Positions 1 to 49,113 of a stretch of 64,000 bases of DNA are shown here, piece by piece. Source of the DNA: Dictyostelium discoideum (lineage: Eukaryota); assembly GCA_000004695.1 (NCBI GenBank), contig CM000151.3, positions 512,001 through 576,000 of the forward strand, read 5' to 3'. Under the pieces are notes generated by a model. It had not been told where the DNA came from and made no database searches. It saw only the letters and a list, made by a program, of their open reading frames with translations. Every line of letters begins with the position of its first letter. Position 1 is the first letter of the stretch. Position numbers and translations under genes: made by a program.

Positions 1-23
1 CATCATATTATGATTTCGTTATA

Positions 24-3000: not shown

Positions 3001-4313
3001 CAATTCAACAACTTCAAAATAATACAATTAATATTTCAATTAAAATGATATTAAATTCATTAATGAAAAACAATCAAAATAAATACCTACCTTCAAATAG
3101 AATTGATTATTGGAAGAATGAAATGAAATTTGAAGAATCTATTAAACCAATACCAAATGAAATTCGATCAAGAAATAATAACTCAGGAAAAATTATTTTA
3201 TTAACTGGTACAACTGGTTTTTTAGGTGGTTTCTTGCTATTCAATATGTTAAGATTAGATTCATGTAAATTAATTTATTGTTTGATTAGGAATAAAAGTA
3301 AATCAAGTTATCCATTAGATGAAATTATAAATAATTTAAAATATCATCAACTTTATGAAAAATTAAATAAATCACAAATTTCAAAGATTATACCGATTAT
3401 TGGTGATTTATCAATGAATAAACTTGGTCTTTCAAATGATGATTATGAAACAATTTCAAAAAATGTAAATTTAATTATCAATCCAGGTGCAGATATTAAT
3501 CAAAAATCAAGTTATCAAGATTGTAAATTAGTAAATGTTAATGGAGTAAAAGAAATTATTAAATTATCATTATCATCTTTAAAACAAAGGATACCAATTG
3601 TAAACTTTTCATCATTTTCAGTATTTTTCAATCAATCACTTGATAAGAATTTCGATGAATCAGTTTTACCATCAATTGATAATATTGATAATTTACCAAC
3701 AGAATATATGAAGAGTAAAGTTGTGGGAGAATACATTTTATTGGAAGCTTCAAAAAATTATAATATACCATCAATTTTAATTAGACCACCAAGTATATTT
3801 TTAAATCCAGAAACAGGTATTGGTCATAGTAGTGATCTCACTTTATTAATGATCCAATCATGTTATGAATTAGGTTATTGCCCAAATCAAATTTTAAATG
3901 GTTTTATTTTAATTAATACAATTACATGGTTATCAAATAATATTACAAATATTATAATGAATGATAATTGTTGGACAAATTCAAAAATGAATATTTATAA
4001 TGTACATGGTAAACAAATTCAATCAAGTTTAATAATTAAACCACTTGAAAAACATTTCAATTGTAAACAAATCAACAATAATGATTGGATTGATATGGTT
4101 AATAATTCAAATAAAAAATCATGTATTAAATTAAAATCATTCCATTCTTTAGAGAATATTTTTAAAAGTGAAAACAAAGGATATAAATCCAATGAAAGTC
4201 AAAGCATTTCATTATCAACCAAATCATTACTAGAATCAATGGGTTCATACAATACTGATCTTAAAATCACTGATAAAATGATTATTTCTCATATTAAACA
4301 TATTTTTAAATAA
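24..4313 (+). CDS. Type I iterative polyketide synthase, paralog 1, 3' portion only (cMT C-terminal part, ER, KR, ACP, C-terminal thioester reductase R domain); 5' end lies upstream of the window
   Basis: 1429-aa ORF open from the window start and >90% identical at nucleotide level to the 3' two-thirds of the PKS at 29447..38308. It contains ER-like 'GYEFSGIITRVGNNVKDYKVGDNVFGL', a KR Rossmann motif 'ITGQSGIILEIL' with 'YACAN' Y-x3-N, an ACP 'GADSL' phosphopantetheine site, and an R-domain 'LLTGTTGFLGGFLL' (TGxxGxxG) plus 'YMKSK' (YxxxK). Confidence 0.9.
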   Translation: MSNVLHVVKDIKQAVEQMYQLLTTNGQLVFLEPPYKSVLNDSIVGSFEQWWSFTDTDIRKDRCGMPQQSWYQLLNSCNFKDIVMSKECIFFGSVIQAQKPPISLLNSQPKYDNIIIYGGSINSSFVENIKLDSNSKSLFQIETIQEFNKLISKSTITNDSIVYFIKTLETLSLDNFKQITLEYIEINQKLLQINSLCKHVLIVSDSRKTNYLASSAIGAARYFDEFPLLKLHTLDFDYDSTQNYINSKNNKMVQFINILTDSKTNVHKEMIIINNKVYYEIVQKEKNLKLKYNSESFENQNNLMCSLSPNLEYQLQSKQIKLRDNQVEVKTIATGINYKDYLNFSGSNSNGDDNTGLPQFGYEFSGIITRVGNNVKDYKVGDNVFGLSNSCTSSHIVTNFKKIQIKPSKISHIEASSIPIDYLTSFMSLFNVGSLNIEDNESILIHLGRDGFGLSTFEILKWKGFKSNLFVTVNSDKTKQYLLKKYGDLITGIYSNTDKSYVAEIKNKLIKLGSKKKGVDLILNTLPSDFMDSNFKLLTKYGRIIDLNSNHLNQSEFLKNINFKYNHGYHNFELSLFQKNKILKCLNEISNAIENGELKTIPIKEFTNLNIKDAIKYITNGNIEKITVSHDHEIYSDIIYRYLDEKEFSILKSNYQINSNNLGKNILITGQSGIILEILKWIIKYSNINTIENVIILSRSSLKWELELLINQTKLSNNNIKFHFKSVDVGDSEQVDNAINDILNENQQIRNIDSIFHFAFQQIACKVQEINMKHLNISHGAKSMGAINLHNQSIKRNWKLINFVMASSALSFIDSTDQCTYACANTLLDSFSKYRVSLGLPSTCINLGLIESTGFVSKNESISVFLDGNGIIPTPINRVLGLLDLQIQNASKFTNSMISNFKPSKFKNNQQISLFLKFDYLMNLKNNSEQTKKENTGNKNIDELFIEKVSELFSMDESKINKNLRLIDYGADSLIIVQLKNWIDKEIGINLITIQQLQNNTINISIKMILNSLMKNNQNKYLPSNRIDYWKNEMKFEESIKPIPNEIRSRNNNSGKIILLTGTTGFLGGFLLFNMLRLDSCKLIYCLIRNKSKSSYPLDEIINNLKYHQLYEKLNKSQISKIIPIIGDLSMNKLGLSNDDYETISKNVNLIINPGADINQKSSYQDCKLVNVNGVKEIIKLSLSSLKQRIPIVNFSSFSVFFNQSLDKNFDESVLPSIDNIDNLPTEYMKSKVVGEYILLEASKNYNIPSILIRPPSIFLNPETGIGHSSDLTLLMIQSCYELGYCPNQILNGFILINTITWLSNNITNIIMNDNCWTNSKMNIYNVHGKQIQSSLIIKPLEKHFNCKQINNNDWIDMVNNSNKKSCIKLKSFHSLENIFKSENKGYKSNESQSISLSTKSLLESMGSYNTDLKITDKMIISHIKHIFK

Positions 4314-5530
4314 GCAATGTCTTTTTAATGTTTATAAAAGGAAAATAAATAAATTAACTAAATATATTAAATATTAAATATAATTAAAATATTAATATAA
4401 TTCTAAATTTGTGAGTAACTTTTATTTTTTTATTTTTATTTTACATTTTAATTATATTTGCCCCATGCCAAAAATAATTTTATTTTAAAAAGTGAGATAT
4501 TATTTATTAATATTTTAAATTTGTTAAAAATTTTATTAAATTATAACATCTCTTTTTAAAAAGTGAGAAATTGTGTGTGGTAAAATTTTTCCAAAAATAA
4601 CCAATTTTCGAGATTCTGAAAACAATTTAAAAACAATTCGTCAAGTTCCACCAAAATCGAGCAGGTCTGCAGAGTAAAAATTAAAATACTAAAAATAATA
4701 ATAATAAAATAATTAAAATAAAAAAATTAATAATAATGTGTGGAGATAAAATAAATAATTAATTTAATTTATTTTTAATGAAAAAAATTCTTAAAATACT
4801 ATTAAAAAATGAGAGATTGCTGGTTTTATAAAATTTATTAACTTCTTTTTTCCAGTGTTTATATAAAAAGGATTCTATTTTTTTTATATTTTAAAATTAA
4901 AAAATAATTATATTAAAAAGGTAAAAAATAAATTTTTCTGAAAAACTTTAAAATATATATATTATATATTAATAGTTTTTTAAAAAAAAGAAAAAAAATA
5001 AAAAATAAAAATTAAAAAGAAAAAAATAAAAAATAAAAAAAATCATGTTAAAAATTTTTATAGCTATTTTATTTTAGTGATATTCTCATTACTTTCAAAT
5101 TTGAATGCAGTAAATGGAGTTAGTGTTGGCTGTATGACCTATTGTCAAAATTATTTTAAATTTTGCACCTTAGGATCCAGTCAATCAGACAAATTAAATT
5201 GCAAAAAGATAAATGAAAAATGTCCAGAGGGATGTCTAAATATTCTACCAACTAGGTTGGGATGAATAATTCGAAATGGATTGAATTGGAACAAATTGAA
5301 ACAATTTTTTAATGTTTATAAAAATAAACTAAATTTAAAAATAATAAAATTTTTTAAAATTTGAACAGTCACTTTCATTTATTTTGAAATAAATTTTTTT
5401 TTTTTTTTTTTTCTGTAACAGAAGTGGTATGGTTTAGAAAGATTTGAAATATATCTCCCCATTTTAGAGTTTCTTCATTCTATTGATGTTGAATACATTA
5501 TGAGAATTGATAATATTTGGAAATTATAAT

Positions 5531-6170
5531 TTAAACGGTTTCTTTGATCTCTTGCTTAATAGACCAACCCAAGAATAACACTTTTCCTTGATACCATATT
5601 TTCTTATGTTTTGTCATTAATTTCATATTCGCATAATTTATCATTCCAAATGAATTTAACACCTTTTCTATATATTGATATATTGGATGAGAATATTGAT
5701 TTTGACGATGTATTCTCCTGACAGTCTTTTTCACTAATAACCATTTGATTTTGTTTCTCTAACTTTTCTTGGTTTTCTAATAATTTATTATTGATCTCAT
5801 TTTGAGATTCTTTTAAATTGCATACCATTGAATTTGCTAAAGTTCCAACCTCTACTTCCATTTGCTGACAACTACCAGTTTTAAAGTTGTGAATAATCTA
5901 CCTCCAATTGCATTGATTGAACCACGAGATGGACTATTATCATTATTGCTGTCATTAAAGGTGTCATCACCATTTAAATCTACATCTTCTTCATCTCTGA
6001 TATTATTAATTTTATTATTGTTATAACTATTATCTTTATTATTATTATTATTATTAATCCACCAATTTGCTTTTGTGTGGCCTAATCTACAACAATTTAA
6101 GCATTTTAATCTATTATTAAATTTATCATTGTTATTAGAATTAATATTATTGTTGCTGTTTTGATTATAA

Positions 6171-6229
<59 letters not shown>

Positions 6230-6600
6230 ATTGCTACTATTTTAATTATTGTTATTAAAATTATAATTTCTATTTGAATCAAAATTATTATTTGATATTG
6301 AATTGTAATCATTTCTCAAACTTCTATTATTATAATAAGAATTATCATCATTTCTTTGTCTCATTGAATTAATGGATTGAGAAGAAGAAGAAGATGATGA
6401 TGATGGACTTGATTATAAATAATATGAACTTGGGAGTCCATTGATGAATTTGATTGATTTTTAGGAGATGAATAAGGTGATTCATAATTATCAATATTAT
6501 CCCATTTGATTTTGTAATTATTATTATTAATATTACTATTGTTATTATTATTAAATTTTATATTATAATTTGAAAAGTTTGGGTGTACACTTTGGCCATT
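5531..6600 (-). pseudogene. Degenerate N-rich ORF(s) with frameshifts; contains a zinc-knuckle-like motif (C-x2-C-x4-H-x4-W); possible decayed gene or retroelement gag remnant
   Basis: Minus-strand ORFs 5531..5734 and 5604..5861 overlap in different frames; upstream the minus strand encodes '...KCLNCCRLGHTKANWW...' followed by N-rich and D/E-rich runs; no single intact long ORF. Confidence 0.25.
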
Positions 6601-7335: not shown

Positions 7336-7477
7336 TATTCACTCACCTATTTTCTTAAATAAGGTTAGTTTTTATTTTTTTAAAAAAAAAATATATTTAA
7401 AAAACAAATATTAATTCGAATAAATTATTCTATATTATTCTATAGAGATATTCCTCAACTAAAATTACTAAATACCT

Positions 7478-8114
7478 ATGAATAATTTTAAGAATATAAA
7501 TTTAATAGAGAAAGGAGTTGCAATTGTTGGTATTGGATTTAGAATTCCTTCTGGTAATAATGAAAATTCAATCAGTTCACCAGATGATTTATTTAATAAT
7601 TTAAAGAATGGTTTTGATGGTGTTAGTAGTACATCAGAAAGATGGAGTGACAATTTTCATAAATTAGGTGAAATTAGTAGTCCAAATGCAGGTTTATTAC
7701 CATTTAATGAATGCAAATCATTCGATCCATTATTTTTTGGTATTAATCCATCCGAAGCACCATTGATTGATCCTCAACAAAGATTATTATTAAAATGTAC
7801 ATGGGAAGCATTAGAAGATGCATCTATTGATCCAATTTCAATTCGTGGTACAAATACTTCAGTTTTCATTGGTTCTTCAAATATTGATTATTTACATACA
7901 AATAAACATCAAGACTCAGTTTTAAAAAATGTAATAGCACAATCCACCTGTGCAATTTCAAATAGAATATCATATTGTTTCGATTTTAATGGTCCATCAT
8001 TATCAATTGATACTGCATGTTCATCATCATTAAATGCAATTTCTCAAGGTTATCATTCAATATTAAATGGTACTTCTGATATCTCAATTGTTGGTGGTGT
8101 AAATTTAATATTAG
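7478..8114 (+). CDS. PKS paralog 2, exon 1 (ketosynthase N-terminal half incl. active-site Cys '[10 protein letters not shown]')
   Basis: ATG at 7478; ORF '[28 protein letters not shown]...VGGVNLILG' ends at a GTAAGG donor at 8115. Confidence 0.85.
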
Positions 8115-8186
8115 GTAAGGATTAAATATATATATTTTAAAAATACACTCATTAATTAAATTTAATTTATTTAAATATTTTACTAG
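8115..8186 (+). other. Intron 1 of PKS paralog 2 (72 bp, phase 1, GTAAGG...TACTAG)
   Basis: Joining the g at 8114 to the 'at' at 8187 gives '...VNLILG|DVETTKAYSYLSMLSKTHGKCKAFD', the canonical KS continuation; exon 1 and exon 2 ORFs are in the same frame and the intron length is a multiple of 3. Confidence 0.8.
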
Positions 8187-11100
8187 ATGTTGAAACGACA
8201 AAAGCATATTCGTATTTAAGCATGTTAAGTAAAACACATGGTAAATGTAAAGCATTTGATGAAAGTGGTGATGGTTTTACACGTGGTGAATGTGCTGGTG
8301 TTGTAGTTTTAAAGAATTTACAAGATGCAGTAAAAGATGGTAATAGAATTTATTGTGTAATTAATGGTTCAAGTTCAAATGTTGATGGTAATGGTAATAT
8401 GGATAAAGTTAACTTTTATTCGCCATCAAAGCAATCACAATTTAATAATATTAATTCAGCATTTAAATCAACCAATGAAAAACTTTCAGTAAATGAAATT
8501 CAATATATCGAAGCACATGGTACTGGTACTAAAACAGGCGATCCAATTGAAACTGAAGCAATTTCAATGGCTTTTAAAAATAGAGATAAATCAACACCAA
8601 TTCTAATTGGTTCAATTAAAAGTAATATTGGTCATTGTGAAGCTGGTTCAGGTGTTGCATCATTAATCAAATGTTGTTTAATGTTTAAATATCAATGCTT
8701 TTTACCAAACATTCATTTCAAAAATCCAAATCCATTAATTAAATTCAATGAATGGAATTTAAAAGTTGTAACATCACCAATTCCATTCAACAGGAAAAAT
8801 GAAAAACCAGTTTCAATGATGATTAATAACTTTGGTGTAACAGGTTCAAATTGTTGTTTACTTATTTCAGAGTTTAAAAAACAAGATTATGAGCCATATG
8901 AAAACAACTACAAAAGTAATAATAAAAATATATTAATACCATTCTCAGCAAATTCATCAAATTCATTAAATCAATACCAATCAAAATTTAAAAATATAAT
9001 TAATAATCAATTCAATTTTATTGATTTTACCGCAAATCAAATTTATTCAAAATCAAATTATCTTTGTCAAAGATCAGTTATAGCTGCAAGTAATTCAAAT
9101 GAACTTTTTGAAAAAATTTTAAATAAAAAACAAATTCAAACTAAAAATTCAATCATTTCGAATATGTCATTCAAAGGAAAGAACCCAATTACAATTTTTG
9201 TTTTTTCAGGTCAAGGATCACAATATCCTAAAATGGCTTTAGAATTATATAATAATGAAGTAATCTTTAAGAAGTCAATTGATTTAATCAATTCAAAATT
9301 ATCAAAATACTATGGTTATTCAGTTTTAGAAAAATTAAGGTCGATAGGAGATGATGATACCACTTCCATTCATGATCCAAATATTTCACAACCAGCAGTG
9401 TGTATGATTTCAGTATCACTATTTGAATTGTATTGCCATTGGGGAGTAAATCCATCATTTATTCTTGGTCATAGTCTTGGTGAAATTTCAGCATCATATT
9501 GTTCTGGAATGATAGACTTAGATACATTCTGTTATACAGTTTATCACAGATCAATAGCGCAAACTAAAACACACGGTAATGGTAGAATGTTATCAATCAA
9601 TATCAGTGATGAAGAATTTAAATCAATGTATTCTCAAAAGTATCCACAAATTGAAATAGCATGTTATAATTCACCTCAATCAATTGTTGTGGCAGGTAAT
9701 GAATCAATATTAAATGAAATTTCAAAAGAATTAAAAGAAAAAGAAATTTTCACTGCAATGTTAGGTTCATTATCATCATTCCATACAAGTAGTCAGCAAT
9801 GTACAAAAGATAGTGTATTAAAACTAAATATTCAAAGCAATCAACCAAAAGTACCAATATTTTCAACAGTTACAACAAATTTATTTAATGAATCAAATCG
9901 ATTTAATTCACAATATGTTTACGATAATATTATTAATCCAGTTAGATTCACACAAACAATTTCAAATATTTATAAACATATCGAATCAAATCAATTAAAT
10001 AATGATATTGTATTCATTGAAATTGCACCACATCCAACATTATCATTTTATATTAAACAAATGGTACCATCAAGTTTAAATGAATCAGTTTCAGTTTATT
10101 CAGCACTTCACAAGAAAAAGAATGATGTCGAAGAGTTTCAACAAACCATTTCAAATTTATATTGTCAAAATGGATATAATATTAATTTTAAATGTCAATT
10201 TAATAATAAAAAATCAAATAAAAAAATTGATTTACCTCTTTACCAATGGAGTGACGAAACATACTTCGCTCAAACTCAAACACTTGAACAACATAGAGAA
10301 GAAGGACCACCAATTGACCATCTTGGTATATCAAACTCTTTTATTTCACCATTTAATAATTCATATAAAACATTAATCGATATAAACAATAAACCATTCC
10401 AATATCTTAAAGGTCATATGGTTAAAGGTAAATACTACTTCCCAGGTTGTGGTTATATCGATAATATTATTCAACTTTATAAAAATCAAGATATTTTTAT
10501 TAGTTTTATAGAATTTAAAACACCATTAATTTTAATTGAAGGTATCAATCAATGTTTACAAACAAACATTCAACAAACTGGTAAAAGTGAATATCGTGCA
10601 CAATTTCATTTCAAAGATCAAAAATCAAATCAATGGACTCAATCGTCAAATTCAAATTTCCAATTATTAGATCATGGTAATGATATACCATCAAATTATA
10701 ATATTGAAGAAATTATTAAAAACAAATGTAATTTAAGCAAATTAACAAAGAATGAACTTTATACACATATAAAATCAAAAACTGGTTTAAATTATACTGG
10801 AGTTTTTAAAGGTGTTACTGAATGTTATATAGGTGATAACTGTTCATTATCAGTTGTATCTTTAGAATCTCAAACAAACTCATTTTTAAATATACCAATA
10901 TTAGATACATGTTTACATGGAATGTTAGTATTAATAAATGATCAATGTCAAATTGTATTTGATAAAACCATTGGATTTAAATATTATTCATCAAACATAC
11001 CAGCATATTTCAAAGAAAATAAAGATTGTTTTTATGTTTATTCCCATTTAAAATCAAAGAGTGCTGATTCATACCATGGATCTATAATTGTAATGTTATC

Positions 11101-14100
11101 AGATGGTTCAGTTTTATATGAAATTCAAGAAGTTGTTTGTAAATCATTAATTCCAATCAAAGATTCACTTAAAATTGAATATCCAAATGATGAATTATAC
11201 AAAGTTCATTTACAATCAAAAGATTCTCAAATTCCAACACCATCATATTTCAAATCAATTATTTATGAAAATGATTCTTTCCATTCTATTGTAAATATTC
11301 CAGAAGATTTATTCAAATATATTTCAACATTGTTTTATAAAGATATTATAAAAAGATGTCCAGAAATTAATATCAATAAAATTAATTCTCATAGTGTTAA
11401 TGAAATTATTTCAAGTTTCAGTAAAATTTCAAAACACGAAAGATTATTTAGATTTGTATTTGAAACAATAAAAGAGAATGGTATTCTTAATAGTTTGGAA
11501 GAAAATGATGATGCTTATTTCGAATTTAATGAATTAGTTATAAAATCATCAAGAATTATTTCAAAATTATTATTTCCATTAGAAAATGATAATGATAATG
11601 AAGATTTACCTCAATCATTATTTCAAAATGGTTTAATGGATAAATTTTATAAATGCAACAATTTTAAAAAGAAAAATCAAATTATTTCACATGTTATAAA
11701 ACATTCAATTAAAGAGATTATTAATAATAATATTATAATTAGAATTTTAGAATTTGGAGGAGGTACTGCATCATTATCAGTTGAAGTTATTGGAGAAATC
11801 GTTACATTACTCCAAGAGAATCCAAATTATCAAGTTGAAATCGAATATACATGGAGTGATATTTCACCTGCATTCATAGCAGATGCAAAGAATAAAATCA
11901 ATAAAATCATTAATGATGCTGCTATAACAAATGGATTAAATGTTATTTATCTTCCATTAACAATTGGTGAATCATTGATAGAAACTCAATCAATTAAACC
12001 ATCATATTATGATTTCGTTATAATGTCAAATGTTCTTCATGTTGTTAAAGATATCAAACAAGTGGTAGAACAAATGTATCAATTGTTAACACCAAATGGT
12101 CAATTGGTGTTTGTTGAACCACCTTATAAATCAATTCTAATTGATTCAATAGTTGGTTCATTTGATCAATGGTGGTCATTCACTGATACTGATATTAGAA
12201 AAGATAGATGTGGTATGTCTCAACAAAGTTGGTATCAATTATTAAAGACATGTAATTTTAAAGACATTGTAATGTCTAAAGAATGCATTTTCGGATCAGT
12301 AATACAGGCACAAAAACCACCAATTTCTTTATTGAATTCTCAACCAAAACATGATAATATAATTATATATGGTGGTGGTAATAATTCACGTTTTTTTGAA
12401 AACATCAAATTATATTCAAATTCGAAAAGTTTAATTCAAATTGAAACTATTCAAGAATTTAATCAATTTATAAATAAATCTACAATTACAAACGATTCAA
12501 TCATTTATTTTATAAAAACATTAGAAACATTATCATTGGATAATTTTGCACAAATAACTCTTGAATATATTGAAATCAATAAAAAACTATTACAAATTAA
12601 TAGTTTATGTAAACATGTATTAATTGTTAGTGATTCAAGAAAAACTAACTATTTAGCATCATCAGTTGTTGGTGCTGCAAGATACTTTGATGAATTCCAA
12701 CAATTGAAATTACATACGTTAGATTTTGATTATGATTCAACTCAAAATTATATAAATTCAAAAAATAACAAAATGGTTCAATTCATTAATATATTAACAG
12801 ATTCAAAAACAAATGTTCATAAAGAAATGATTATAATTAATAATAAAGTATATTATGAAATAGTTCAAAAAGAGAAAAATCTAAAATTAAAATACAATTC
12901 AGAATCTTTTGAAAATCAAAATAATTTAATGTGTTCATTATCACCAAATTTAGAATATCAATTACAATCAAAACAAATTAAATTAAGAGATAATCAAGTT
13001 GAAGTTAAAACAATTGCAACTGGTATCAATTATAAAGATTATTTAAATTTTAGTGGTTCAAATAGCAACGGTGATGACAATACAGGTTTACCACAATTTG
13101 GATATGAATTTTCAGGTATTATAACAAGAGTTGGTAATAATGTAAAAGATTATAAAGTTGGTGATAATGTATTTGGTTTATCAAATTCTTGTACATCATC
13201 TCACATTGTTACAAATTTTAAAAATATTCAATTAAAACCTTCAAAAATAAGTCATATTGAAGCATCATCAATTCCAATTGATTATTTAGCATCATTTATT
13301 AGTTTATTTAATGTTGGTAGTTTAAATATTGAAGATAATGAATCAATTTTAATTCATTTAGGTAGTGATGGTTTTGGATTATCAACATTTGAAATATTAA
13401 AATGGAAAGGTTTTAAATCAAATTTATTCGTTACAGTAAATTCAGATGAAACTAAACAATATCTTCTAGATAGATATGGTGATTTTATTAGTGGAATTTA
13501 TTCAAACACAGATAAAAGTTATGTTACAGAAATAAAAAACGAATTAATTAAATTAGGTTCAAAAAAGAAAGGAGTAGATTTAATATTAAATACATTACCA
13601 AGTGATTTTATGGATTCAAATTTCGAGTTATTAACAAAGAATGCAAGAATAATTGATTTAACTTCAAATCATTTAAATCAAAGTGAATTTTTAAAAAATA
13701 TCAATTTTAAATATAATCATAGTTACCACAACTTTCAGTTATCATTATTTCAAAAAAATAAAATACAAAAATGTTTAAATGAAATTTCAAATGCTATTGA
13801 AAATGGAGAATTAAAAACTATTCCAATTAAAGAATTTACAAATTTAAATATTAAAGATGCCATCAAATACATTACCAACGGTAACATTGAAAAAATTACA
13901 GTTAGCCATGACCATGAAATTTATAGTGATATTATTTATAGATATTTAGATGAAAAAGAGTTTTCAATATTAAAATCAAATTATCAAATTAATTCAAATA
14001 ATTTAGGTAAAAATATATTAATTACAGGTCAATCAGGTATTATTTTAGAAATATTAAAATGGATCATTAAATATTCAAATATTAATACAATAGAAAATGT

Positions 14101-15091
14101 TATTATTCTTTCAAGATCATCATTAAAATGGGAATTAGAGTTATTAATTAATCAAACTAAACTATCAAATAATAATATTAAATTTCATTTCAAGAGTATT
14201 GATGTTGGTGATAGTGAACAAGTTGATAATGCAATCAATGAAATATTAAATGAAAATCAACAAATTACAAATATTGATTCAATATACCATTTTGCATTTC
14301 AACAAATTACATGTAAAGTTCAAGAAATCAATATGAAACATTTAGATATTTCACATGGAGCAAAATCAATGGGAGCAATTAATTTACATAATCAATCAAT
14401 TAAACGTAATTGGAAATTAATTAATTTTGTTATGGCTTCTTCTGCAATTTCATTAATAGGTTCAACAGATTTATGTACATATGCTTGTGCAAATACTCTA
14501 CTAGATTCATTTTCAAAATACAGAGTATCACTTGGATTACCATCTGCATGTATTAACTTTGGATCAATTGAATCTACTGGTTTCGTTTCAAAGAATGAAT
14601 CAGTTTCAGTATTTTTAGACGGTGGTGGTTTCCATCCAACACCAATCAATCAAGTTTTAGGCCTTTTAGATTTACAAATTCAAAATTCTGGTAAATTCAC
14701 AAATTCAATGCTTTCAAATTTCAAACCCTCAAAATTTAAAAATAATCAACAAATATCATTATTTCTAAAATTTGATTACTTGATGAATTTAAAAAACAAT
14801 AGTGAACAAACTAAAAAAGAGAATATTGGAAATAAAAACATTGATGAATTATTCATTGAGAAAGTTTCAGAATTATTTTCAACCGATGAATCAAAAATAA
14901 ATAAAAATCTTAGATTAATCGATTATGGTGCAGATTCATTAATAATAGTTCAATTAAAGAATTGGATAGATAAAGAAATTGGTATTAATTTAATAACAAT
15001 TCAACAACTTCAAAATAATACAATTAATATTTCAATCAAAATGATATTAAATTCATTAATGAAAAATAATCAATGTGGAAGGGAAATTTAA
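8187..15091 (+). CDS. PKS paralog 2, exon 2: rest of KS, AT, DH, cMT, ER, KR, ACP; terminates 8 codons after the ACP region ('...MKNNQCGREI*'), no reductase domain
   Basis: KS His motifs 'EAHGTGTKTGDP' and 'NIGHCEAGSG'; AT 'FVFSGQGSQYPKMA' and 'GHSLGEISA'; DH 'LKGHMVKGKYYFPGCGY' (H-x3-G-x4-P); MT 'ILEFGGGTASLS'; KR 'ITGQSGIIL'; ACP 'IDYGADSLIIVQL'; stop at 15089-15091 with a junction sequence not seen in the other paralogs. Confidence 0.85.
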
Positions 15092-15461
15092 CTTTTTTTT
15101 TTTCAGGGAAAAAAAGCGCTATTTTACCTACACTGCTTTGTGAAATTTAAATAAAAAACCAATATCTAATAATAATAATAATTAATTTATATTTTTAATA
15201 TGAATGTTTTAATATAATTTATTTAAATAATTAAATTCTAAAAATAAAACTTTTGATTTAAAAAATAAAAAATAAAATAAAAAATTCAAAAAACAGCTCT
15301 ACAAATGTCAAAAGAAAAATTTCTAAAGATATTTCACGGTTTTTTACGAGCTCGAAAATATCTTAGGCGCCTACACAAAAAAATTTTATTTTAATAATAT
15401 GACAACATCACAAAATAAATTTACAGAAAAAAAAAAAAATAAAAAAATAAATTAGAGATGC

Positions 15462-15477
15462 CGGAAATGAAAAAAAA

Positions 15478-15516
<39 letters not shown>

Positions 15517-16348
15517 GCAAAAAAAAAAAAAAAAAAAAAAAAATTTGGTTTTTTTTTTTTTTAATTTTTTTTTTTTAATTTTTTTTTTTATTTTTTTTTT
15601 AAATTAATTTATATTTATTTTAGGAGTCAATCCATTCATCTAAATCTATTTTCTCAACTGCTTTTGGAGTAACTGTTATTGAAAAAATTATATTTATTTG
15701 AGACTGTTGAGAATGTTTTTTTGTTTTATTTTTTTATAAAATATTTAATATACCATCTGGATGAATATTTTTTTATAAAATTTAATTAATTAAATTCTCT
15801 CTTTTTTTATTTATAAACAAAACTATAGAACCAACTGACAACATCTTCATACTCCATTGGAATTCTTCGGCACTCAGAGATTAAAATTAAATGATCCCAT
15901 CATTTTACCATTAGAAGATGGATCGTTTAAACTTGTTTTTGGTTATCCACCTTTTGATATTGAAATAATTGAGGTTAAATATTTGGGTGATGGTAGAATT
16001 GGAATAAGATACCATGTCTTATTACCATCAAGAGAAGATCTAGAAACAATAGTTGGTTATGATTATTCATCCAGATGGTATATTAAATATGATTGTCTAC
16101 CACTCAAAACCACAAGCTTTCACTTTCTTCATCACTCTGCCTCTACAAAAGAACAAGAAAAATATCAAAGTTGTAAAATCGATATTGAAAAAGATATAAA
16201 ATATTTTTCAATAACAGTTACTCCAAAAGCAGTTGAGAAAATAGATTTAGATGAATGGATTGACTCCTAAAATAAATATAAATTAATTTAAAAAAAAAAT
16301 AAAAAAAATAAAAAAAATAAAAAAAAACAATTTTTTTTTTTTTTTTGC

Positions 16349-16390
<42 letters not shown>

Positions 16391-16412
16391 CATTTCCAGC
16401 GTCTCTATTAAA
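15462..16412. repeat. Nested inverted-repeat (foldback-like) element, ~950 bp overall, with ~510-bp central region; candidate non-autonomous DNA transposon or hairpin-forming repeat
   Basis: Outer arms 15462..15545 vs reverse complement of 16330..16412 ('tagagatgccggaaatgaaaaa...aaatttggcaaaaa' vs 'tagagacgctggaaatgaaaaa...aaatttggcaaaaa'). Inner arms 15602..15690 vs reverse complement of 16202..16290 appear identical by eye. T-rich and A-rich spacers between arms are also complementary. Confidence 0.5.
15857..16270 (+). CDS. Hypothetical 137-aa ORF inside the inverted-repeat element (no recognisable domain); 3' end lies within the right inner repeat arm
   Basis: ORF 'MEFFGTQRLKLNDPIILPLEDGSFKLVFGYPPFDIEIIEVKYLGDGRIGIRYHVLL...' is not low-complexity, unlike most of the neighbouring intergenic sequence; no similarity to any family I recognise. 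Confidence 0.3.
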   Translation: MEFFGTQRLKLNDPIILPLEDGSFKLVFGYPPFDIEIIEVKYLGDGRIGIRYHVLLPSREDLETIVGYDYSSRWYIKYDCLPLKTTSFHFLHHSASTKEQEKYQSCKIDIEKDIKYFSITVTPKAVEKIDLDEWIDS

Positions 16413-16815: not shown

Positions 16816-18190
16816 CATTTTTTTTTTTTGGTATAAATAAACTATTGTAGTATACAATTAGTATGTTATTTTTATTTATTTATTTTAGGTTTTTTAGTTT
16901 TTGTGAATTTAAAATGGTATGTTATTTTAGATGTGGTAATTAATAATTAATTGGTAGTGTAATTGTTGGAATTGGTTCATTTGTGTTTATGCTCCATTCT
17001 TTTTTAAATTTTTTGATGGTTTCGGACCATTGGGTTTCTTTTTGAGTTTTTGTGAGGTTGTTTTTAATTGAGTATTGGTTAAAGTTTGATAATGTTCTTG
17101 AATATTCCAATCTTATTAGCTTGTGCCATTTTGATTTTAATATATCATAATCTAGTGTTGTGTTGTTTATTTGGTTGTTCCAATTGTCAATTGATTGAGT
17201 TATATTGATGTCAAATAATGATTTGCATAACCATATTTGGTGAATAACTAATGAGATTATGTTCCAATATGCATGTGTTCTGACTAGATCAAGATTTGTT
17301 TATATAATTCCAGTTGAATCTGTATTTTTTATATTGTGCGTTTTCTGCTAAATGAAAATTAATATTGATAGTTGGATCTGGTTTAAATGCTTTGTTGTTT
17401 GTTTGTGGTTTATAAATGAGTGTGTATAATTTTGTTGTTTGGTTTTTTGTTAGTGACCAGTTTTTGTTTCCATTGCAATTTTTATATATAAAATATTTTA
17501 ATTTGTCGTGGTTTATGAAGTTGATTGTGTGCTGACAATTGAAAAACAAATGACCATAGGGATCATTATTCATTTCATTGTTGCAAATGGGGCAAACTTT
17601 GTTGTGTAGATGATTAATTGGAAGACATCTAGCATGGAATCTTTGCATTGTATCACGGCCTTTTGGATCTTTTAATTTTTGAATTTTGACAAATAGTTGG
17701 TCGTATGTGTATTTCCATAATAGTTGTATTGATTGTTGGTGCGAAGTAAGAAGTATATCTGAATATTTCTTGCCAACATAGTCTTTTGATTTACATTGGT
17801 GATTGTTGAGTATTGTCGAGTAGATTTCTTTGAGTGTTGGTGGTAGTGAAATATTATTTGTGGTTAATGTTTGAGAGGTTTGGTTTTTTGTTAATATTGG
17901 TTGTAGGGTTTGAACTTTATCTTTTAGATGTCCAATTTGAGTTGCATAGTTTTCCCATTCTTTTTTGATTTTTATAAGGTATGGAGAAGAGATTGATTTG
18001 TTGATGATTTGATCCATCCAACTTATCATGTATATTGAATTGTTTGCAGATTTATGCTTTTGTAAAAATCTGTTGTATATCCAAATCTTTTGAGCAACTT
18101 GTCGTAATTGTATATTCCACATACCCCAACCACCTTCTTTTAATGGTGTTTCAACAAATTGAAACAAATTGAAACAAGTTTTTTTAATGT
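16816..18190 (-). mobile_element. 5'-truncated non-LTR (TRE/LINE-like) retrotransposon fragment: ORF2 C-terminal region with CCHC finger, 3' UTR and short poly(A)
   Basis: The minus-strand ORF ends with 'CPICNNEMNNDPYGHLFFNC' (C-x2-C-x10-H-x4-C), as at the C-terminus of non-LTR ORF2 proteins. The + strand is locally G+T-rich rather than AT-rich; the minus strand runs into a 12-nt A-tract at 16816..16827. Confidence 0.5.
17289..18167 (-). CDS. Retroelement ORF2 C-terminal fragment (292 aa, truncated at its 5' side)
   Basis: ORF-track protein with a C-terminal CCHC-type finger and no homolog among the cellular genes in the window. Confidence 0.5.
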   Translation of the reverse strand: MFQFVETPLKEGGWGMWNIQLRQVAQKIWIYNRFLQKHKSANNSIYMISWMDQIINKSISSPYLIKIKKEWENYATQIGHLKDKVQTLQPILTKNQTSQTLTTNNISLPPTLKEIYSTILNNHQCKSKDYVGKKYSDILLTSHQQSIQLLWKYTYDQLFVKIQKLKDPKGRDTMQRFHARCLPINHLHNKVCPICNNEMNNDPYGHLFFNCQHTINFINHDKLKYFIYKNCNGNKNWSLTKNQTTKLYTLIYKPQTNNKAFKPDPTININFHLAENAQYKKYRFNWNYINKS

Positions 18191-18790: not shown

Positions 18791-18980
18791 CACCTATTTT
18801 TAACTGCTTCTTACTATAAAAAATAATAGTAAAAAAAAAAGTAAATAATGCAAGTTTCTAAAAAAAAAAAAAAATATAAATTAAAAAAAAAAAAAACAAA
18901 ATTTAATTTTAAAATTAATTTAGAATTATTTCTGGTAATAACTAATAGAGATATTCCTCAACTAAAATAACTAAGCACCA

Positions 18981-19617
18981 ATGAATAATTTAGAAATTAT
19001 AAATTTAATAGATAAAGGTGTTGCAATTGTTGGGGTGGGGTTTAGAATTCCTTCTGGTAATAATGAAAATTCAATTTGTTCACCAGATGATTTATTTAAT
19101 AATTTAAAGAATGGTTTTGATGGTGTTAGTAGTACATCAGAAAGATGGAGTGACAATTTTCATAAATTAGGTGAAATTAGTAGTCCAAATGCAGGTTTAT
19201 TACCATTTAATGAATGCAAATCATTCGATCCATTATTTTTTGGTATTAATCCATCCGATGCTCATCAGATTGATCCTCAACAAAGATTATTATTAAAATG
19301 TACATGGGAAGCATTAGAAGATGCATCTATCGATCCAATTTCAATTCGTGGTACAAATACTTCAGTTTTCATTGGTTCTTCAAATATTGATTATCAACAT
19401 ATAAATAAACACCAAGACTCAGTTTTAAAAAATGTAATAGCACAATCTGCCTATGCTGTTTCAAATAGAATTTCATACTGTTTCGATTTTAATGGTCCAT
19501 CATTATCAATCGATACTGCATGTTCATCATCATTAAATGCAGTTTCTCAAGGTTATCATTCAATATTAAATGGTACTTCCAATATGTCAATTGTTGGTGG
19601 TGTAAATTTAATATTAG
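18981..19617 (+). CDS. PKS paralog 3, exon 1 (KS N-terminal half)
   Basis: ATG 18981 '[28 protein letters not shown]...[15 protein letters not shown]...VGGVNLILG' followed by a GTAAGA donor at 19618. Confidence 0.85.
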
Positions 19618-19691
19618 GTAAGAATTACATTTAAATATATTATATATAAAATACACTCATTAATTAATTTTTTATTTAAATATTTTACTAG
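19618..19691 (+). other. Intron 1 of PKS paralog 3 (74 bp, phase 1)
   Basis: GTAAGA...TTACTAG; splicing restores '...LILG|DVGMIKAYSYLSMLSKTHGKCKAFD'; the 74-nt length explains the frame shift between the exon 1 ORF (frame 0) and the exon 2 ORF (frame 2). Confidence 0.8.
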
Positions 19692-22600
19692 ATGTTGGAA
19701 TGATAAAAGCATATTCGTATTTAAGCATGTTAAGTAAAACACATGGTAAATGTAAAGCATTTGATGAAAGTGGCGATGGTTTTACACGTGGTGAATGTGC
19801 TACTATTGTAGTTTTAAAAAATTTACAAGATGCAGTTAAAGATGGTAATAGAATTTATTGTGTAATTAATGGCTCAAGTTCAAACGTTGATGGCGGCGGT
19901 CATATGGATAAAGTTAACCTTTATTCACCATCAAAGCAATCACAATTTAATAATATTAATTCAGCATTTAAATCAACCAATGGTAAACTTTCAATTAATG
20001 ATATTCAATATATCGAAGCACATGGTACTGGTACTAAAACAGGCGATCCAATTGAAACTGAAGCAATTTCAATGGCTTTTAAAAATAGAGATAAATCAAC
20101 ACCAATTCTAATTGGTTCAATTAAAAGTAATATTGGTCATTGTGAAGCTGGTTCAGGTGTTGCATCATTAATCAAATGTTGTTTAATGTTTAAATATCAA
20201 TGCTTTTTACCAAATATTCATTTCAAAAATCCAAATCCATTAATTAAATTCAATGAATGGAATTTAAAAGTTGTAACATCACCAATTCCATTCAACAAAA
20301 GAATTAATGAAAAACCAGTTTCAATGATGATTAATAACTTTGGTGTAACAGGTTCAAATTGTTGTTTACTTATTTCAGAATTTAAAAAACAAGATTATGA
20401 ATCATATGAAAACAACAACAACAACAAAAGTAATCATAAAAATATATTAATACCATTCTCAGCAAATTCATCAAATTCATTAAATCAATACCAATCAAAA
20501 TTTAAAAATATAATTAATAATCAATTCAATTTTATTGATTTTACCGCAAATCAAATTTATTCAAAATCAAATTATCTTTATCAAAGATCAGTTGTAATTG
20601 CAAGTAATTCAAATGAACTTTTTGAAAAAATTTTAAATAAAAAACAAATTCAAACTAAAAATTCAATCATTTCGAATATGTCATTCAAAGGAAAGAACCC
20701 AATTACAATTTTTGTTTTTTCAGGTCAAGGATCACAATATCCTAAAATGGCTTTAGAATTATATAATAATGATGAAATTTTTAAGAAGTCAATTGATTTA
20801 ATCGATTCAAAATTATCAAAGTACTATGGTTATTCAGTATGGGGGAAGTTAACAACGATCAAAGATGATGACTTGACCTCAATACATGATCCAATTTTCG
20901 CACAACCAGCACTGTGTATGCTTTCAGTATCACTATTTGAAATATATTGCCATTGGGGAGTAAATCCATCATTTATTCTTGGTCATAGTCTTGGTGAAAT
21001 TTCAGCAGCATATTGTTCTGGAATGATCGATTTAGATACATTCTGTTATACAGTTTATTACAGATCAATCGCCCAATCTAAAACAAATGGTTGTGGTAGA
21101 ATGTTATCAATTAATATCAGTGATGAAGAATTTAAATCAATGTATTCTCAAAAGTATCCACAAATTGAAATTGCGTGTTATAATTCACCTCAATCAATTG
21201 TTGTGGCAGGTAATGAATCAATATTAAATGAAATTTCGAAAGAATTAAAAGAAAAAGAAATTTTCACTGCAATGTTAGGTTCATTATCATCATTCCATAC
21301 AAGTAGTCAGCAATGTACAAAAGATAGTATATTACAACTAAACATTGAAAGTAATCAACCAAAAGTACCAATATTTTCAACAGTTACAACAAATTTATTT
21401 AATGAATCAAATCGATTTAATTCACAATATGTTTATGATAATATTATCAAACCAGTTAAATTCACACAAACAATTTCAAATATTTATAAACATATCGAAT
21501 CAAATCAATTAAATAATGATATTGTATTCATTGAAATTGCACCACATCCAACAATATCATTTTATATTAAGCAAATGGTACCATCAAGTTTAAATGAATC
21601 AGTTTCAGTTTATTCAGCACTTCACAAGAAAAAGAATGATGTCGAAGAGTTTCAACAAACCATTTCAAATTTATATTGTCAAAATGGATATAGTATTAAT
21701 TTTAAATGTCAATTGGAAAATAAAAAATCAAATCAATCAATAAATTTACCACTTTACCAATGGGATGATGAATTATACTTCGCTCAAACTCAAACACTTG
21801 AACAATATACAAAAGAAGGACCACCAATCGATCATCTTGGTCTATCAAACTCTTATTATTCACCATTTAAAAATTCATATAGAACATTTATTGATATAAA
21901 TAATAAACCATTCCAATATCTTAAAGGTCATATGGTTAAAGGTAAATACTACTTCCCAGGTTGTGGTTATATCGATATTATTATTCAACTTTATAAAAAT
22001 CAAGATATTTTTATTAGTTTTATTGAATTTAAAACACCATTAATTTTAATTGAAGGTATCAATCAATATTTACAAACAAACATTCAACAAACTGGTAAAA
22101 GTGAATATCGTGCACAATTTCATTTCAAAGATCAAAAATCAAATGAATGGATTCAATCATCAAATGCAAATTTCCAATTATTAGATCATGGTAATGATAT
22201 ACCATCAAATTATAATATTGAAGAAATTATTAAAAACAAATGTAATTTGAGCAAATTAACAAAGAATGAACTTTATACACAAATAAAATCAAAAACTGGT
22301 TTGAATTATACTGGTGTTTTTCAAGGTGCTACTGAATGTTATTTAGGTAATGATTGTTCATTATCAGTTTTATCTTTAAAATCTCAAACAAATTCATTTT
22401 TAAATATACCAATTTTAGATACATGTTTACATGGAATGTTAGTATTAATAAATGATCAAAGTCAAATTGTATTTGATAAAGCCATTGGATTTAAATATTA
22501 TTCATCAAACATACCATCGGATCTTAAAGAATATAAAGATAGTATTTATGTTTATTCCAATTTAAAACCAAAAAATGCTGATTCATACCATGGATCTATT

Positions 22601-25600
22601 ATAGTAATGTTATCAGATGGTTCAGTTTTATATGAAATTCAAGAAGTTATTTTTAAATCATTAATTCCAATCAAACATTCACTTAAAATTGAGTATCCAA
22701 ATGATGAATTATACAAAGTTCATTTACAATCAAAAGATTCTCAAATTCCAACGCCATCATCATTCAAATCAATTATTTATGAAAATGATTTCTTCCATTC
22801 TGCACTTAATATTCCAGAAGATTTATTCAAATATATTTCAACATTATTTTATAAAGATATTATAAAAAGATGTCCAGAAATTAATATCAATAAAATTAAT
22901 TCTCATAGTGTTAATGAAATTATTTCAAGTTTCAGTAAAATTTCAAAAAATCAAAGATTATTTAGATTTGTATTTGAAACAATAAAAGAGAATGGTATTC
23001 TTAATAGTTTGGAAGAAAATGATGATGCTTATTTCGAATTTAATGAATTAGTTATTAAATCATCAAAAATTATTTCAAAATTATTATTCCCACTAGAAAG
23101 TGATAATGATAATGAAGATTTACCTCAATCATTATTTCAAAATGGTTTAATGGATAAAATTTATAAATGCAGTTATTTAAGAAAGAAGTATCAAATGATT
23201 TCACATGTCATTATACATTCAATTAAAGAGATTATTAATAATAATATTATAATTAGAATTTTAGAATTTGGAGGAGGCACTGCGTCATTATCAGTTGAAG
23301 TTATTGGAGAAATCGTTGCATTACTTCAAGAGAATCCAAATTATCAAGTTGAAATCGAATATACATGGAGTGATATTTCACCTGCATTCATAGCAGATGC
23401 AAAGAATAAAATCAATAAAATCATTAATGATGCTGCTATAACAAATGGATTAAATGTTATTTATCGTTCATTAACAATCGATGAATCATTGCTTGAAAAT
23501 CAAGCAATTAAACCATCATATTATGATTTCGTTATAATGTCAAATGTTCTTCATGTTGTTAAAAATATTAAACAAGCTGTAGAACAAATGTATCAATTGT
23601 TAACACCGAATGGTCAATTGCTATTTATAGAACCACCTTATAAATCAGTTCTAATCGATTCAATCATTGGTTCATTTGAACAATGGTGGTCATTCACTGA
23701 TACTGATATTAGAAAAGATAGATGTGGTATGTCTCAACAAAGTTGGTATCAATTATTAAAGACATGTAATTTTAAAGACATTTTAATGTCAAAAGAATGC
23801 ATCTTTGTTGGGTCAGTAATACATGCACAAAAACCACCAATTTCTTTATTGAATTCTCAACCAAAACATGATAATATAATTATATATGGTGGTGGTGGTA
23901 ATTTAAGTTTTGTAGAAAACATCAAATTAGATTCAAATTCAAAAAGTTTAATTCAAATTGAAACTATTCAAGAATTTAATCAATTATTAAGTCAATCAAC
24001 AATTACAAATGATTCAATAATTTATTTCATAAAAACATTAGAAACATTATCATTGGATAATTATAAACAAATAACTCTTGAATATATTGAAATCAATCAA
24101 AGACTATTACAAATCAATAGTTTATGTAAACATGTATTAATTGTTAGTGATTCAAGAAAAACTAACTATTTAGCATCATCAGTTGTTGGTGCTGCAAGAT
24201 ACTTTGATGAATTCCAACAATTGAAATTACACACATTAGATTTTGATTATGATTCAACTCAAAATTATATAAATTCAAAAAATAACAAAATGGTTCAATT
24301 CATTAATATCTTGGTGGACTCCAAAACAAATGTTCATAAAGAAATGATTATAATTAATAACAAAGTATATTATGAAATAGTTCAAAAAGAGAAAAATCTA
24401 AAACTAAAATACAATTCAGAATCTTTTGAAAATCAAAATAATTTAATGTGTTCATTATCACCAAATTTAGAATATCAATTACAATCAAAACAAATTAAAT
24501 TAAGAGATAATCAAGTTGAAGTTAAAACAATTGCAACTGGTATCAATTATAAAGATTATTTAAATTTTAGCGGTTCAAATAATAATAATGGTGATGACAA
24601 TACAGGTTTACCACAATTTGGATATGAATTTTCAGGTATTATAACAAGAGTTGGTAATAATGTAAAAGATTATAAAGTTGGTGATAATGTATTTGGTTTA
24701 TCAAATTCTTGTACATCATCCCACATTGTTACAAATTTTAAAAATATTCAATTAAAACCTTCAAACATAAGTCATAACGAAGCATCATCAATTCCAATTG
24801 ATTATTTAACATCATTTATGAGTTTATTTAATGTTGGTAGTTTAAATATTGAAGATAATGAATCAATTCTAATTCATTTAGGTAGTGATAGTTTTGGATT
24901 ATCAACATTTGAAATATTAAAATGGAAAGGTTTTAAATCAAATTTATTCGTTACAGTTGATTTGGACGAAACTAAACAATATCTTCTAGATAGATATGGT
25001 GATTTTATTACTGGAATTTATTCAAACACAGATAAAAGTTATGTTACAGAAATAAAAAACGAATTAATTAAATTAGGTTCAAAAAAGAAAGGAGTAGATT
25101 TAATATTAAATACATTACCAAGTGATTTTATGGATTCAAATTTCGAGTTATTAACAAAGAGTGGTAGAATAATTGATTTAACTTCAAATCATTTAAATCA
25201 AAGTGAATTTTTAAAAAATATCAATTTTAAATATAACCATGGTTACCACAACTTTCAGTTATCATTAATTCAAAAAAATAAAATACAAAAATGTTTATAT
25301 GAAATTTCACATGCTATTGAAAATGGAGAATTAAAAACTATTCCAATTAAAGAATTTACAAATTTAAATATTAAAGATGCCATCAAATACATTACCAACG
25401 GTAACATTGAAAAAATTACAGTTAGTCATGATCATGAAATTTATAGTGATATTATTTATAGATCTTTAGATGAAAAAGAGTTTTCAATATTAAAATCAAA
25501 TTATCAAATTAATTCAAATAATTTAGGTAAAAACATATTAATTACAGGTCAATCAGGTATTATTTTAGAAATATTAAAATGGATCATTAAATATTCAAAT

Positions 25601-26599
25601 ATTAACACAATTGAAAATGTTATTATTCTTTCAAGATCATCATTAAAATGGGAATTAGAATTATTAATTAATCAAACTAAACTATCAAATAATAATATTA
25701 AATTTCATTTCAAGAGTGTTGATGTCGGTGATAGTGAACAAGTTGATAATGCAATCAATGAAATATTAAATGAAAATCAACAAATTACAAATATTGATTC
25801 AATATACCATTTTGCATTTCAACAAATTACATGTAAAGTTCAAGAAATCAATATGAAACATTTAGATATTTCACATGGAGCAAAATCAATGGGTGCAGTT
25901 AATTTACATAATCAATCAATTAAACGTAATTGGAAATTAATTAATTTTGTTATGGCTTCTTCTGCACTTTCATTAATAGGTTCAACAGATCAATGTACAT
26001 ATGCCTGTGCAAACCTATTATTAGATTCATTTTCAAAATACAGAGAATCACTTGGATTACCATCTGCTTGTATTAACCTTGGGTCAATTGAATCAACTGG
26101 TTTCGTTTCAAAGAATGAATCAATTTCAGAATTTACAGATGGCATTGGTTACGTTCCAACACCTATCAATCTAGTTTTAGGTCTTTTAGATTTACAAATT
26201 CAAAATGCAGGTAAATTTACGAATTCAATGCTTTCAAATTTAATATCATCAAAATTTAAAAATATTCAACAAACATCATTATTTCTAAAATTTGATTACT
26301 TGATGAATTTAAATGACAACAGTGAACAAACTAAAAAAGAGAATATTGGAAATAAAAACATTGATGAATTATTCATTGAGAAAGTTTCAGAATTATTTTC
26401 AACGGATCAATCAAGAATAAATAAAAATCTTAGATTAATTGATTATGGCGCAGATTCATTAATAATAGTTCAATTAAAGAATTGGATAGATAAAGAAATT
26501 GGTATAAATTTAATAACAATTAAACAACTTCAAAACAATACAATTAATATTTCAATCAAAATGATATTAAATTCATTAATGAAAAATAATCAAATATAG
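19692..26599 (+). CDS. PKS paralog 3, exon 2: KS(C-term)-AT-DH-cMT-ER-KR-ACP; stops 3 codons into the linker that precedes the reductase domain in the full-length paralogs ('...MKNNQI*')
   Basis: Same motif set as paralog 2. A premature TAG sits at the position where the paralog at 29447 continues 'NIDDNNKDLPSNRIDYW...' into the R domain. Confidence 0.85.
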
Positions 26600-48891: not shown

Positions 48892-49080
48892 ACTTTTTTT
48901 TTGTTTTTTTTTTTTAATGTTAGAAACTAAATTAAAATTGATTTAGATAATGTTACATTATAATTTACTTACATTTTTTTAATTTTATTGTGTGTTGAAA
49001 AGTTTAAAAAAGAATTTAAATCTGGAGAATTTAATTCGTAGGTTCTAAAACATAGTAGTTTTTTTTTTTTGAATGAATAA

Positions 49081-49113
<33 letters not shown>

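Follow-up and report, generated by a model that had tools for sequence, protein, structure and literature searches.

A probable palindromic relic of a two-gene PIF/Harbinger-type transposon beside the pks7 gene of Dictyostelium discoideum

Downstream of the polyketide synthase (PKS) gene pks7, the genome of Dictyostelium discoideum carries a 955-nt unit bounded by inverted repeats, which lies at positions 15453-16407 of the 64-kb stretch analyzed here (assembly GCA_000004695.1, contig CM000151.3, positions 512,001 to 576,000; hereafter, the window). We consider it highly probable that this unit derives from a two-gene PIF/Harbinger-type transposon belonging to the D. discoideum species group and is a non-autonomous relic of it, with internal deletions and a partly palindromic structure; this assessment applies to its identity as a rearranged Harbinger-type relic and not to the route by which it formed. 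The unit is a right-end/right-end palindrome whose core is exon 2 together with the preceding intron tail, both from the second gene of the transposon, referred to here as open reading frame 2 (ORF2), and both of its outer terminal inverted repeats (TIRs) are of the right-end type and face outward. No transposase is present in the window. The assignment draws upon the anatomy of the unit and upon related loci, numbered L001 to L011, among which L008 is from D. cf. discoideum, L007 is from a sister lineage, and L001 is from an assembly that is 99.84% identical to the window.

Architecture and retained content of the unit

Comparison of the window with itself by blastn paired 15453-15693 with 16407-16196 over 242 columns (86% identity counting gaps, E = 3e-82). 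In a gapped alignment of the two arms, 202/204 aligned positions were identical, with both mismatches located inside the terminal 17-mer and all five indels located in A/T runs. The ungapped core of the arms (15565-15686 vs 16204-16325) is 97% complementary over 122 nt, and a perfect block of 105 nt pairs 16204-16308 with 15686-15582. A preliminary description of this DNA had recognized two concentric inverted repeats with outer limits of 15462 and 16412. The repeat itself is borne out, but the concentric pair is in fact one continuous arm of ~210-240 nt broken by differences in A/T-run length, and the limits have been corrected to 15453 and 16407. Farther inward, there is a third inverted block, absent from the preliminary description, in which 15741-15767 and 16064-16090 are identical at 27/27 positions (28/30 when extended to 15741-15770 vs 16061-16090); its left member is a minus-strand copy of the codons …YSSRWYIKY… and was also detected by tblastn (15767-15741). 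Between the main arm and this inner block are 47 nt of filler on the left (15694-15740) vs ~105 nt on the right (16091-16195), which the filler replaces. No source of the filler was traced, as its best local scores fell within the range of shuffled sequences and consisted of low complexity only. The entire unit should indeed be able to fold into a hairpin, as was initially proposed: as single-stranded DNA, its 955 nt yielded -246.5 kcal/mol compared to -98.4 +/- 5.9 for shuffled sequences (z = -25). Tandem Repeats Finder (TRF) detected A/T-run arrays only within the arms, and no second copy of the unit was found in the window by self-blastn.

The right arm (16196-16407, + strand) is the ancestral right end, comprising the end of ORF2 and its 3' flank, and is colinear with the right ends of L001, L005, L006, and L007. 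The left arm (15453-15693, - strand) is an inverted duplicate of this sequence according to both blastn and the 202/204 alignment. It carries the right-end form rather than the left-end form and continues inward through the 3' flank to the last ~22 codons and stop of ORF2. At the outer boundaries are the terminal 17-mers TAGAGATGCCGGAAATG on the left (15453-15469, + strand), which is a TIR copy of the right-end type, and TAGAGACGCTGGAAATG on the right (16391-16407, - strand). The same motif marks the homology boundary in L001, L005, L006, L007, and L008. Inward of the left 17-mer is a low-complexity spacer of A-runs and T-runs (15470-15601), which was identified by TRF, varies in length between assemblies, and includes a 31-nt two-copy A25TTTGGC duplication. 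This is followed by the duplicated 3' coding end of ORF2 (…KYFSITVTPKAVEKIDLDEWIDS, then the stop) at 15620-15693 on the minus strand, where tblastn of proteins P0001 and P0004 aligned to 15685/15691-15623. Thus, as had been anticipated, the tail of the window reading frame is also encoded in inverted orientation within the left arm. The genuine TIR is a sequence of only ~17 nt plus an A-run; the arms owe their length to the left side being a duplicate of the right end instead of a native left end.

Of the full element, the window copy has retained nothing but the final part of the ORF2 intron, exon 2, and the right end. It has lost the native left end, exon 1, and the transposase, whose place is taken by the inverted right-end copy of 241 nt, the filler, and the 30-nt internal piece. 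The kept 3' part of the intron (15782-15828, + strand) has an AG acceptor at its end, and homology to intact copies, as well as blastn similarity to L007 and L001, begins inside the intron at ~15782. Alignment to intact copies places exon 2 at 15829-16270 (+ strand), with a 2-bp insertion (CA) at 15839-15840, just past the acceptor, that breaks the frame; the sequence is open again from 15857 until the stop at 16268-16270. The 137-aa ORF noted at 15857-16270 is certainly present, although it begins with TTG and includes no ATG, and it contains no Pfam domain. Its coding capacity has been lost, as there is no start codon, no exon 1 (by tblastn), and a 2-bp frameshift. The relic itself has no function, and at most it might be mobilized by a transposase supplied in trans, which should be possible in principle because two good TIRs have been kept.

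The parent transposon and its second gene

Homologs of the window ORF were restricted to Dictyostelium, specifically D. discoideum strains, D. cf. discoideum, and D. dimigraforme, and only six of 1.84 billion representative proteins matched the family profile, all of them members of the ORF2 family. These homologs are mostly damaged copies of the second gene of the transposon rather than orthologs of a normal gene. Full-length relatives have two exons: exon 1 consists of MPKTSNWSPAEDNYIKSELL…KRTKTALTQRIKKI followed by an acidic linker, while exon 2 begins …EPTEHLHTPLEFFGTQR and matches the window ORF. The genome of strain AX4 has two annotated family members, DDB_G0269532 and DDB_G0271528, both listed as plain hypothetical/uncharacterized proteins. 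The first of these (P0019, UniProt Q55DT4) is encoded on chromosome 1 and is an intact protein of 279 aa; its C-terminus is 100% identical to the translation of window exon 2, and it is also 100% identical to exon 1 of L001. A W-x-x-x-ED…KRT…R pattern in ORF2 recalls Myb, but this alignment is very shallow, and an hhalign comparison of ORF2 with c-Myb R2R3 returned a probability of 0.2%. AlphaFold2 (AF2) modeling of ORF2 produced N-terminal helices with a predicted local distance difference test score (pLDDT) of only ~70 and no Foldseek match. A separate AF2 model of the C-terminal domain (15857-16267, m3fde4da175f5; pLDDT 55) was matched weakly by Foldseek to small heat-shock proteins of the alpha-crystallin type, which share a beta-sandwich; at E values of 0.014-0.1 and TM scores of 0.3-0.5, these matches are not significant and were not used as evidence.

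The transposase partner of ORF2 is found in L008. Its order is TAGAGATGCTGGAAATTG plus an A-run at 6530, a one-intron gene on the minus strand (7554-6639), a 450-nt divergent spacer, exon 1 of ORF2 (8002-8396), and a foreign insertion. The minus-strand gene encodes a transposase with a clear Pfam DDE_Tnp_4 domain (PF13359, E = 1.1e-24, 87.3 bits vs a cut-off of 24.8), and it includes IIDG…GSEHD…ADKGY…RQMIENVF motifs that, when read by eye rather than by a tool, are reminiscent of PIF/Harbinger. Remnants of the same transposase type are located divergently upstream of ORF2 in L004 (83%), L001 (98-100%), and L010 (63-84%, split by an insertion), while L011 contains a more distant divergent pair (53% identity for the transposase and 35% for ORF2).

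The ends of the element are similarly consistent among copies. The 17-mer TAGAGATGCYGGAAAT(T)G and an A-run are found 70-120 nt past the ORF2 stop in L001, L005, L006, L007, and the window, and in every case homology among the family copies ends exactly at this terminal 17-mer. In L008 and L007, the terminal motif (17-18 nt) is found on the left with its orientation reversed (+), and the diverged copy L004 has the same variant, ATGGTGGAATTTG, at both of its ends. Native left ends have the form GGAAATTG - A-run - TAAAT[G/T]TA, and right ends have the form GGAAATG - A-run - AAATTTGGCAAAA. When reconstructed from these loci, the intact element would be ~2.6 kb and would consist of a left TIR (TAGAGATGCTGGAAATTG plus an A-run), the DDE_Tnp_4 gene, the divergent spacer, the two-exon ORF2 (279 aa) on the other strand, ~130 nt of 3' flank, and the right TIR. 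Both genes of the element contain introns. As it combines short TIRs with a transposase and a second gene linked to it, the element has a PIF/Harbinger architecture. The suggestion that the unit is a TIR-bounded non-autonomous transposon is accordingly upheld by the 17-mer that bounds the copies and by the transposase pair in related loci.

Most other family copies have decayed: L001 has an internal deletion, L002 and L006 have in-frame stops, and L008 and L010 have insertions. The window is 98.7% identical to L001 and 94.5% identical to L007, and the near-identity of the AX4-lineage copies indicates that the family was either recently active or homogenized. When the ends were examined for target-site duplications (TSDs), TA or TTA was found to abut most of them; the flanks are AT-rich and the copies are old.

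We also considered the nearest DDE_Tnp_4 gene in L003 as a potential partner of ORF2. It was rejected, as it shares only 28% identity, belongs to another lineage, and is absent from most loci; the true partner is of the L008 type. The other DDE_Tnp_4 genes near L003, L007, L008, L010, and L011 constitute this separate lineage, with 28-45% identity and different ends. They are located at 4576-6366 and 9828-11631 of L008, 10837-12141 of L011, 7108-8371 of L003, 7256-8548 of L010, and 12411-13328 of L007. This second, unrelated Harbinger-like lineage lies close to copies of the ORF2 family and includes two 1.8-kb copies that are 99.2% identical and encode a 434-aa protein. A recurring flank resembling TGGACCTTTCTGTGAATAA… may be a candidate terminus for it.

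Formation of the palindrome and alternative explanations

How a right end came to be present at both sides of the relic is far less certain than its identity. We tentatively favor abortive gap repair with template switching between matching TIRs, while granting this route somewhat less than an even chance. In such a scenario, a full element would have been broken, or left with a gap by excision, and then repaired in place. During this repair, a strand would copy a TIR and then switch to the matching inverted TIR of the other end. Copying would proceed inward, with one further jump and the addition of some filler, until the repair strand was joined to the other side of the break within the intron. 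An exact copy beginning at the terminus, a jump with filler, a second short piece, and an intron junction together form the pattern left by abortive gap repair, from which we infer this route. The rearrangement is also recent, because the arms match at 202/204 positions and the translated exon 2 matches DDB_G0269532 at 100%.

Several observations weigh against the relic assignment or its proposed origin. Matching direct 3-mers were found flanking neither the window unit nor L007 nor L004, and hence no TSD is shown; the flanks in question are AT-rich. No intact transposase of the family was found in the D. discoideum protein sets. In ORF2, no Myb/SANT/MADF domain was detected by Pfam, PDB sequence/profile search, hhalign, AF2, or Foldseek. 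A single copy of this derivative was seen among the sequences compared, and it may never have moved as a unit. Lastly, the formation route is inferred from anatomy only, in which the filler is of untraceable source.

The surrounding PKS genes offered a potential empty-site comparison. The spliced PKS upstream of the unit (7478-8114 + 8187-15091) yields a product that exactly matches AX4 pks7 (DDB_G0271614, on the 8.48-Mb chromosome 2), and pks6, pks7, and the next PKS are tandem paralogs (window 1-3077, 7442-15073, and 18945-26593) with a DNA identity of ~94.5-95.5%. However, a search of the paralogous pks 3' flanks for an empty site or TSD found no counterpart to the element flanks in the window. 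The relic flanks are unique sequence in the window, and the relic sits between two PKS repeat units.

An alternative origin for the palindrome is that two separate copies inserted head-to-head downstream of pks7 and that a later deletion took both left halves, leaving two outward-facing right ends. Copies within the same genome are near-identical in any case, as is evident from L001 and from the exon 2 protein of DDB_G0269532, so the 99% identity of the arms is by itself no proof of local duplication. In addition, an 'A9-T' interruption of the A-run is common to the left arm and the right end of L001 and is not in the right arm. This sequence of events nevertheless requires two insertions within ~1 kb plus a deletion, followed by a further internal deletion and the acquisition of filler in the left copy, and all in a low-copy family, with two annotated ORF2 models in AX4 plus the L001-type copy in the assembly that is 99.84% identical to the window. 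We therefore regard it as unlikely.

A different proposal, which is not exclusive of the relic explanation, concerns what the palindrome might do rather than how it arose. If it had been co-opted as a hairpin-RNA locus, transcription, either local or by read-through, would yield a long double-stranded stem for the RNAi machinery to dice into small RNAs that silence intact copies. The palindrome would then be a natural 'killer' locus, in which read-through, for example from pks7, produces a hairpin RNA and small RNAs that silence DDB_G0269532 and returning transposase-bearing elements. There is a precedent for this in the Mu killer locus of maize, an inverted duplicate of MuDR. Were it to be true, it could explain why a sister lineage still has an intact transposase although this Harbinger-like family has all but disappeared from D. 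discoideum. The anatomy is suitable, as the arm of ~210 bp includes a 105-bp stem without mismatches and the fold is far better than that of shuffled sequences, the stem holds 67 nt of ORF2 coding sequence from a copy whose exon 2 translation fully matches the C-terminus of the intact AX4 protein, and pks7 ends 360 nt upstream of the palindrome on the same strand. D. discoideum is also known to make small RNAs from transposons, including thug-S (PMC4894637, PMC6161686). Conversely, long A/T runs would hinder both transcription and stem formation, and an Rfam scan produced no match at the gathering score, its sole hit being MIR5298 at 27.9 bits compared to a cut-off of 70 bits. On balance, both the co-option of the palindrome as a hairpin-RNA locus and its action as a killer locus seem improbable. 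In a separate comparison, the published Dictyostelium miRNA sequences (PMC4894637) did not map to the element. Two of them, miRNA_can_D3-5p and -3p (Table 2 of PMC4894637), have matches in L001 at 604-753, where three copies lie side by side in direct or inverted orientation, ~5 kb upstream of the L001 element and unrelated to it.

It is very improbable that the unit is instead an ordinary host gene with a long intron, in which the inverted repeat is incidental or regulatory. The candidate for such a gene is DDB_G0271528 (P0020, UniProt Q86JI3), and its 129-aa product is annotated here in AX4 as well as in a second assembly. The AX4 model (15305-16270, + strand) joins an exon at 15305-15338 to an exon at 15915-16270 across a 576-nt intron (15339-15914). 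This purported intron encloses the entire left arm, the 11-codon first exon is unrelated to the ORF2 family, and the natural start of exon 2 is frameshifted. Moreover, all relatives are transposon-linked, with no homologs outside of the D. discoideum group. A start codon, an intact frame, and syntenic orthologs, as might be found for a host gene, are lacking, and the relatives are instead dispersed and mostly damaged. Thus, DDB_G0271528 is probably an annotation artifact built on the relic.

The remaining concern is a chimeric or collapsed palindrome created during assembly, as AT-rich homopolymers are error-prone and the A/T-run lengths do vary between assemblies. This can be effectively dismissed, because the palindrome is also found in L009 (GCA_054883475.1), an independent assembly with 99.84% identity to the window over 25 kb, where it has the same arms, core, and flanks (ungapped arms of 189 nt at 96%); the structure is therefore not an assembly artifact. 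Inside the unit, L009 and the window differ in A/T-run lengths only (15480-15581 and 16353-16358): 15534-15553 and other run segments are missing from L009, and the 31-nt duplication described above is found in the window only. Such length differences could be either strain polymorphism or homopolymer assembly error.

Neighboring sequences, significance, and relation to known systems

The G+C content of the region is 23%, and a tRNA scan identified no tRNA gene within 10-22 kb. At 17289-18167 on the minus strand is an ORF of 292 aa; with its C-terminal Cys/His motif, CPICNNE…HLFFNCQH, it resembles the tail of a non-LTR (long terminal repeat) retrotransposon ORF2. It has weak zinc-finger Pfam matches only, and a 348-aa gene is called there in L009. 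The motif at 45481 that was previously thought to be related to the element does exist, but it has neither an inverted partner nor any further similarity to the element. This sequence (45481-45497, TAGAGATGCCTGACATT) matches the end at 14/17 bases with the first 10 shared, and we have treated it as chance or as an unrelated solo fragment. By a rough estimate, an exact 10-mer TIR match is expected ~0.02 times in the window, and the motif may be a decayed solo end. A weak tblastn match at 49045-49218 was rejected due to its low complexity and absence of an ORF. The PKS genes adjoining the ORF2 copies in L003 and L006 are orthologous, with 83-87% identity between D. cf. discoideum and D. dimigraforme, and lie in opposite orientation relative to ORF2, which suggests either an inversion or independent insertions near PKS genes.

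The biology of the relic is ordinary, as it is a decayed non-autonomous transposon copy of the kind that forms the usual debris of genomes. Its value lies in what it documents. A two-gene PIF/Harbinger-type family is present in a genome that has been described as having no recognizable DNA-transposon transposases (PMC5633606). The two AX4 'hypothetical protein' genes of the family can be reclassified as transposon-derived, with DDB_G0271528 being a probably artifactual model and DDB_G0269532 an intact ORF2. The unit is also a clean case of a palindrome with a right end at both sides, it marks a hairpin prone to recombination within the tandem pks6-pks7-pks8 cluster, and it is a candidate endogenous source of hairpin RNA.

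Among known systems, the parent element most resembles PIF/Harbinger transposons, with which it shares the DDE_Tnp_4 transposase, a linked and separately transcribed second gene, and short TIRs. The deleted copies that keep their ends without a transposase, such as those of the window and L001, are likewise comparable to Tourist-like miniature inverted-repeat transposable elements. Unlike PIF/Harbinger, ORF2 is an orphan without the detectable Myb/SANT/MADF domain that is normal in Harbinger partner proteins, the usual 3-bp TWA (TTA/TAA) target-site duplication could not be made out at the window unit, L007, or L004, and the window derivative is bounded by right ends on both sides instead of by a left and a right end. 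The long inverted arms would allow the unit to snap back into a hairpin in the manner of Drosophila Foldback (FB). FB arms, however, are arrays of short tandem subrepeats, whereas the arms here consist of the 3' end of ORF2 and A/T runs. Without subrepeat arrays the unit is therefore not a classical Foldback-type element.

One-ended or palindromic derivatives are known to arise from aberrant repair or transposition, as exemplified by maize 'double Ds' (hAT) and Mu killer (Mutator). These belong to other superfamilies and are associated with chromosome breakage or silencing, whereas the window unit is known from its sequence. Like them, it duplicates one end in inverted orientation together with coding sequence around a short unique core, and its filler and skipped junction segments are typical of template switching.

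Within the same host genome are the named DNA transposons thug-S/T, DDT-A/B/S, and Tdd-4/5, of which thug-S is described as multicopy with an intron-bearing gene (PMC4894637) and is reported to yield miRNAs (PMC4894637, PMC6161686). Compared by description only, it shares an intron-bearing gene with the Harbinger-type element. According to a 2017 review, no DNA-transposon transposase of D. discoideum resembles known ones (PMC5633606). That statement is at odds with the transposase of the present family, in which DDE_Tnp_4 is clearly recognizable.

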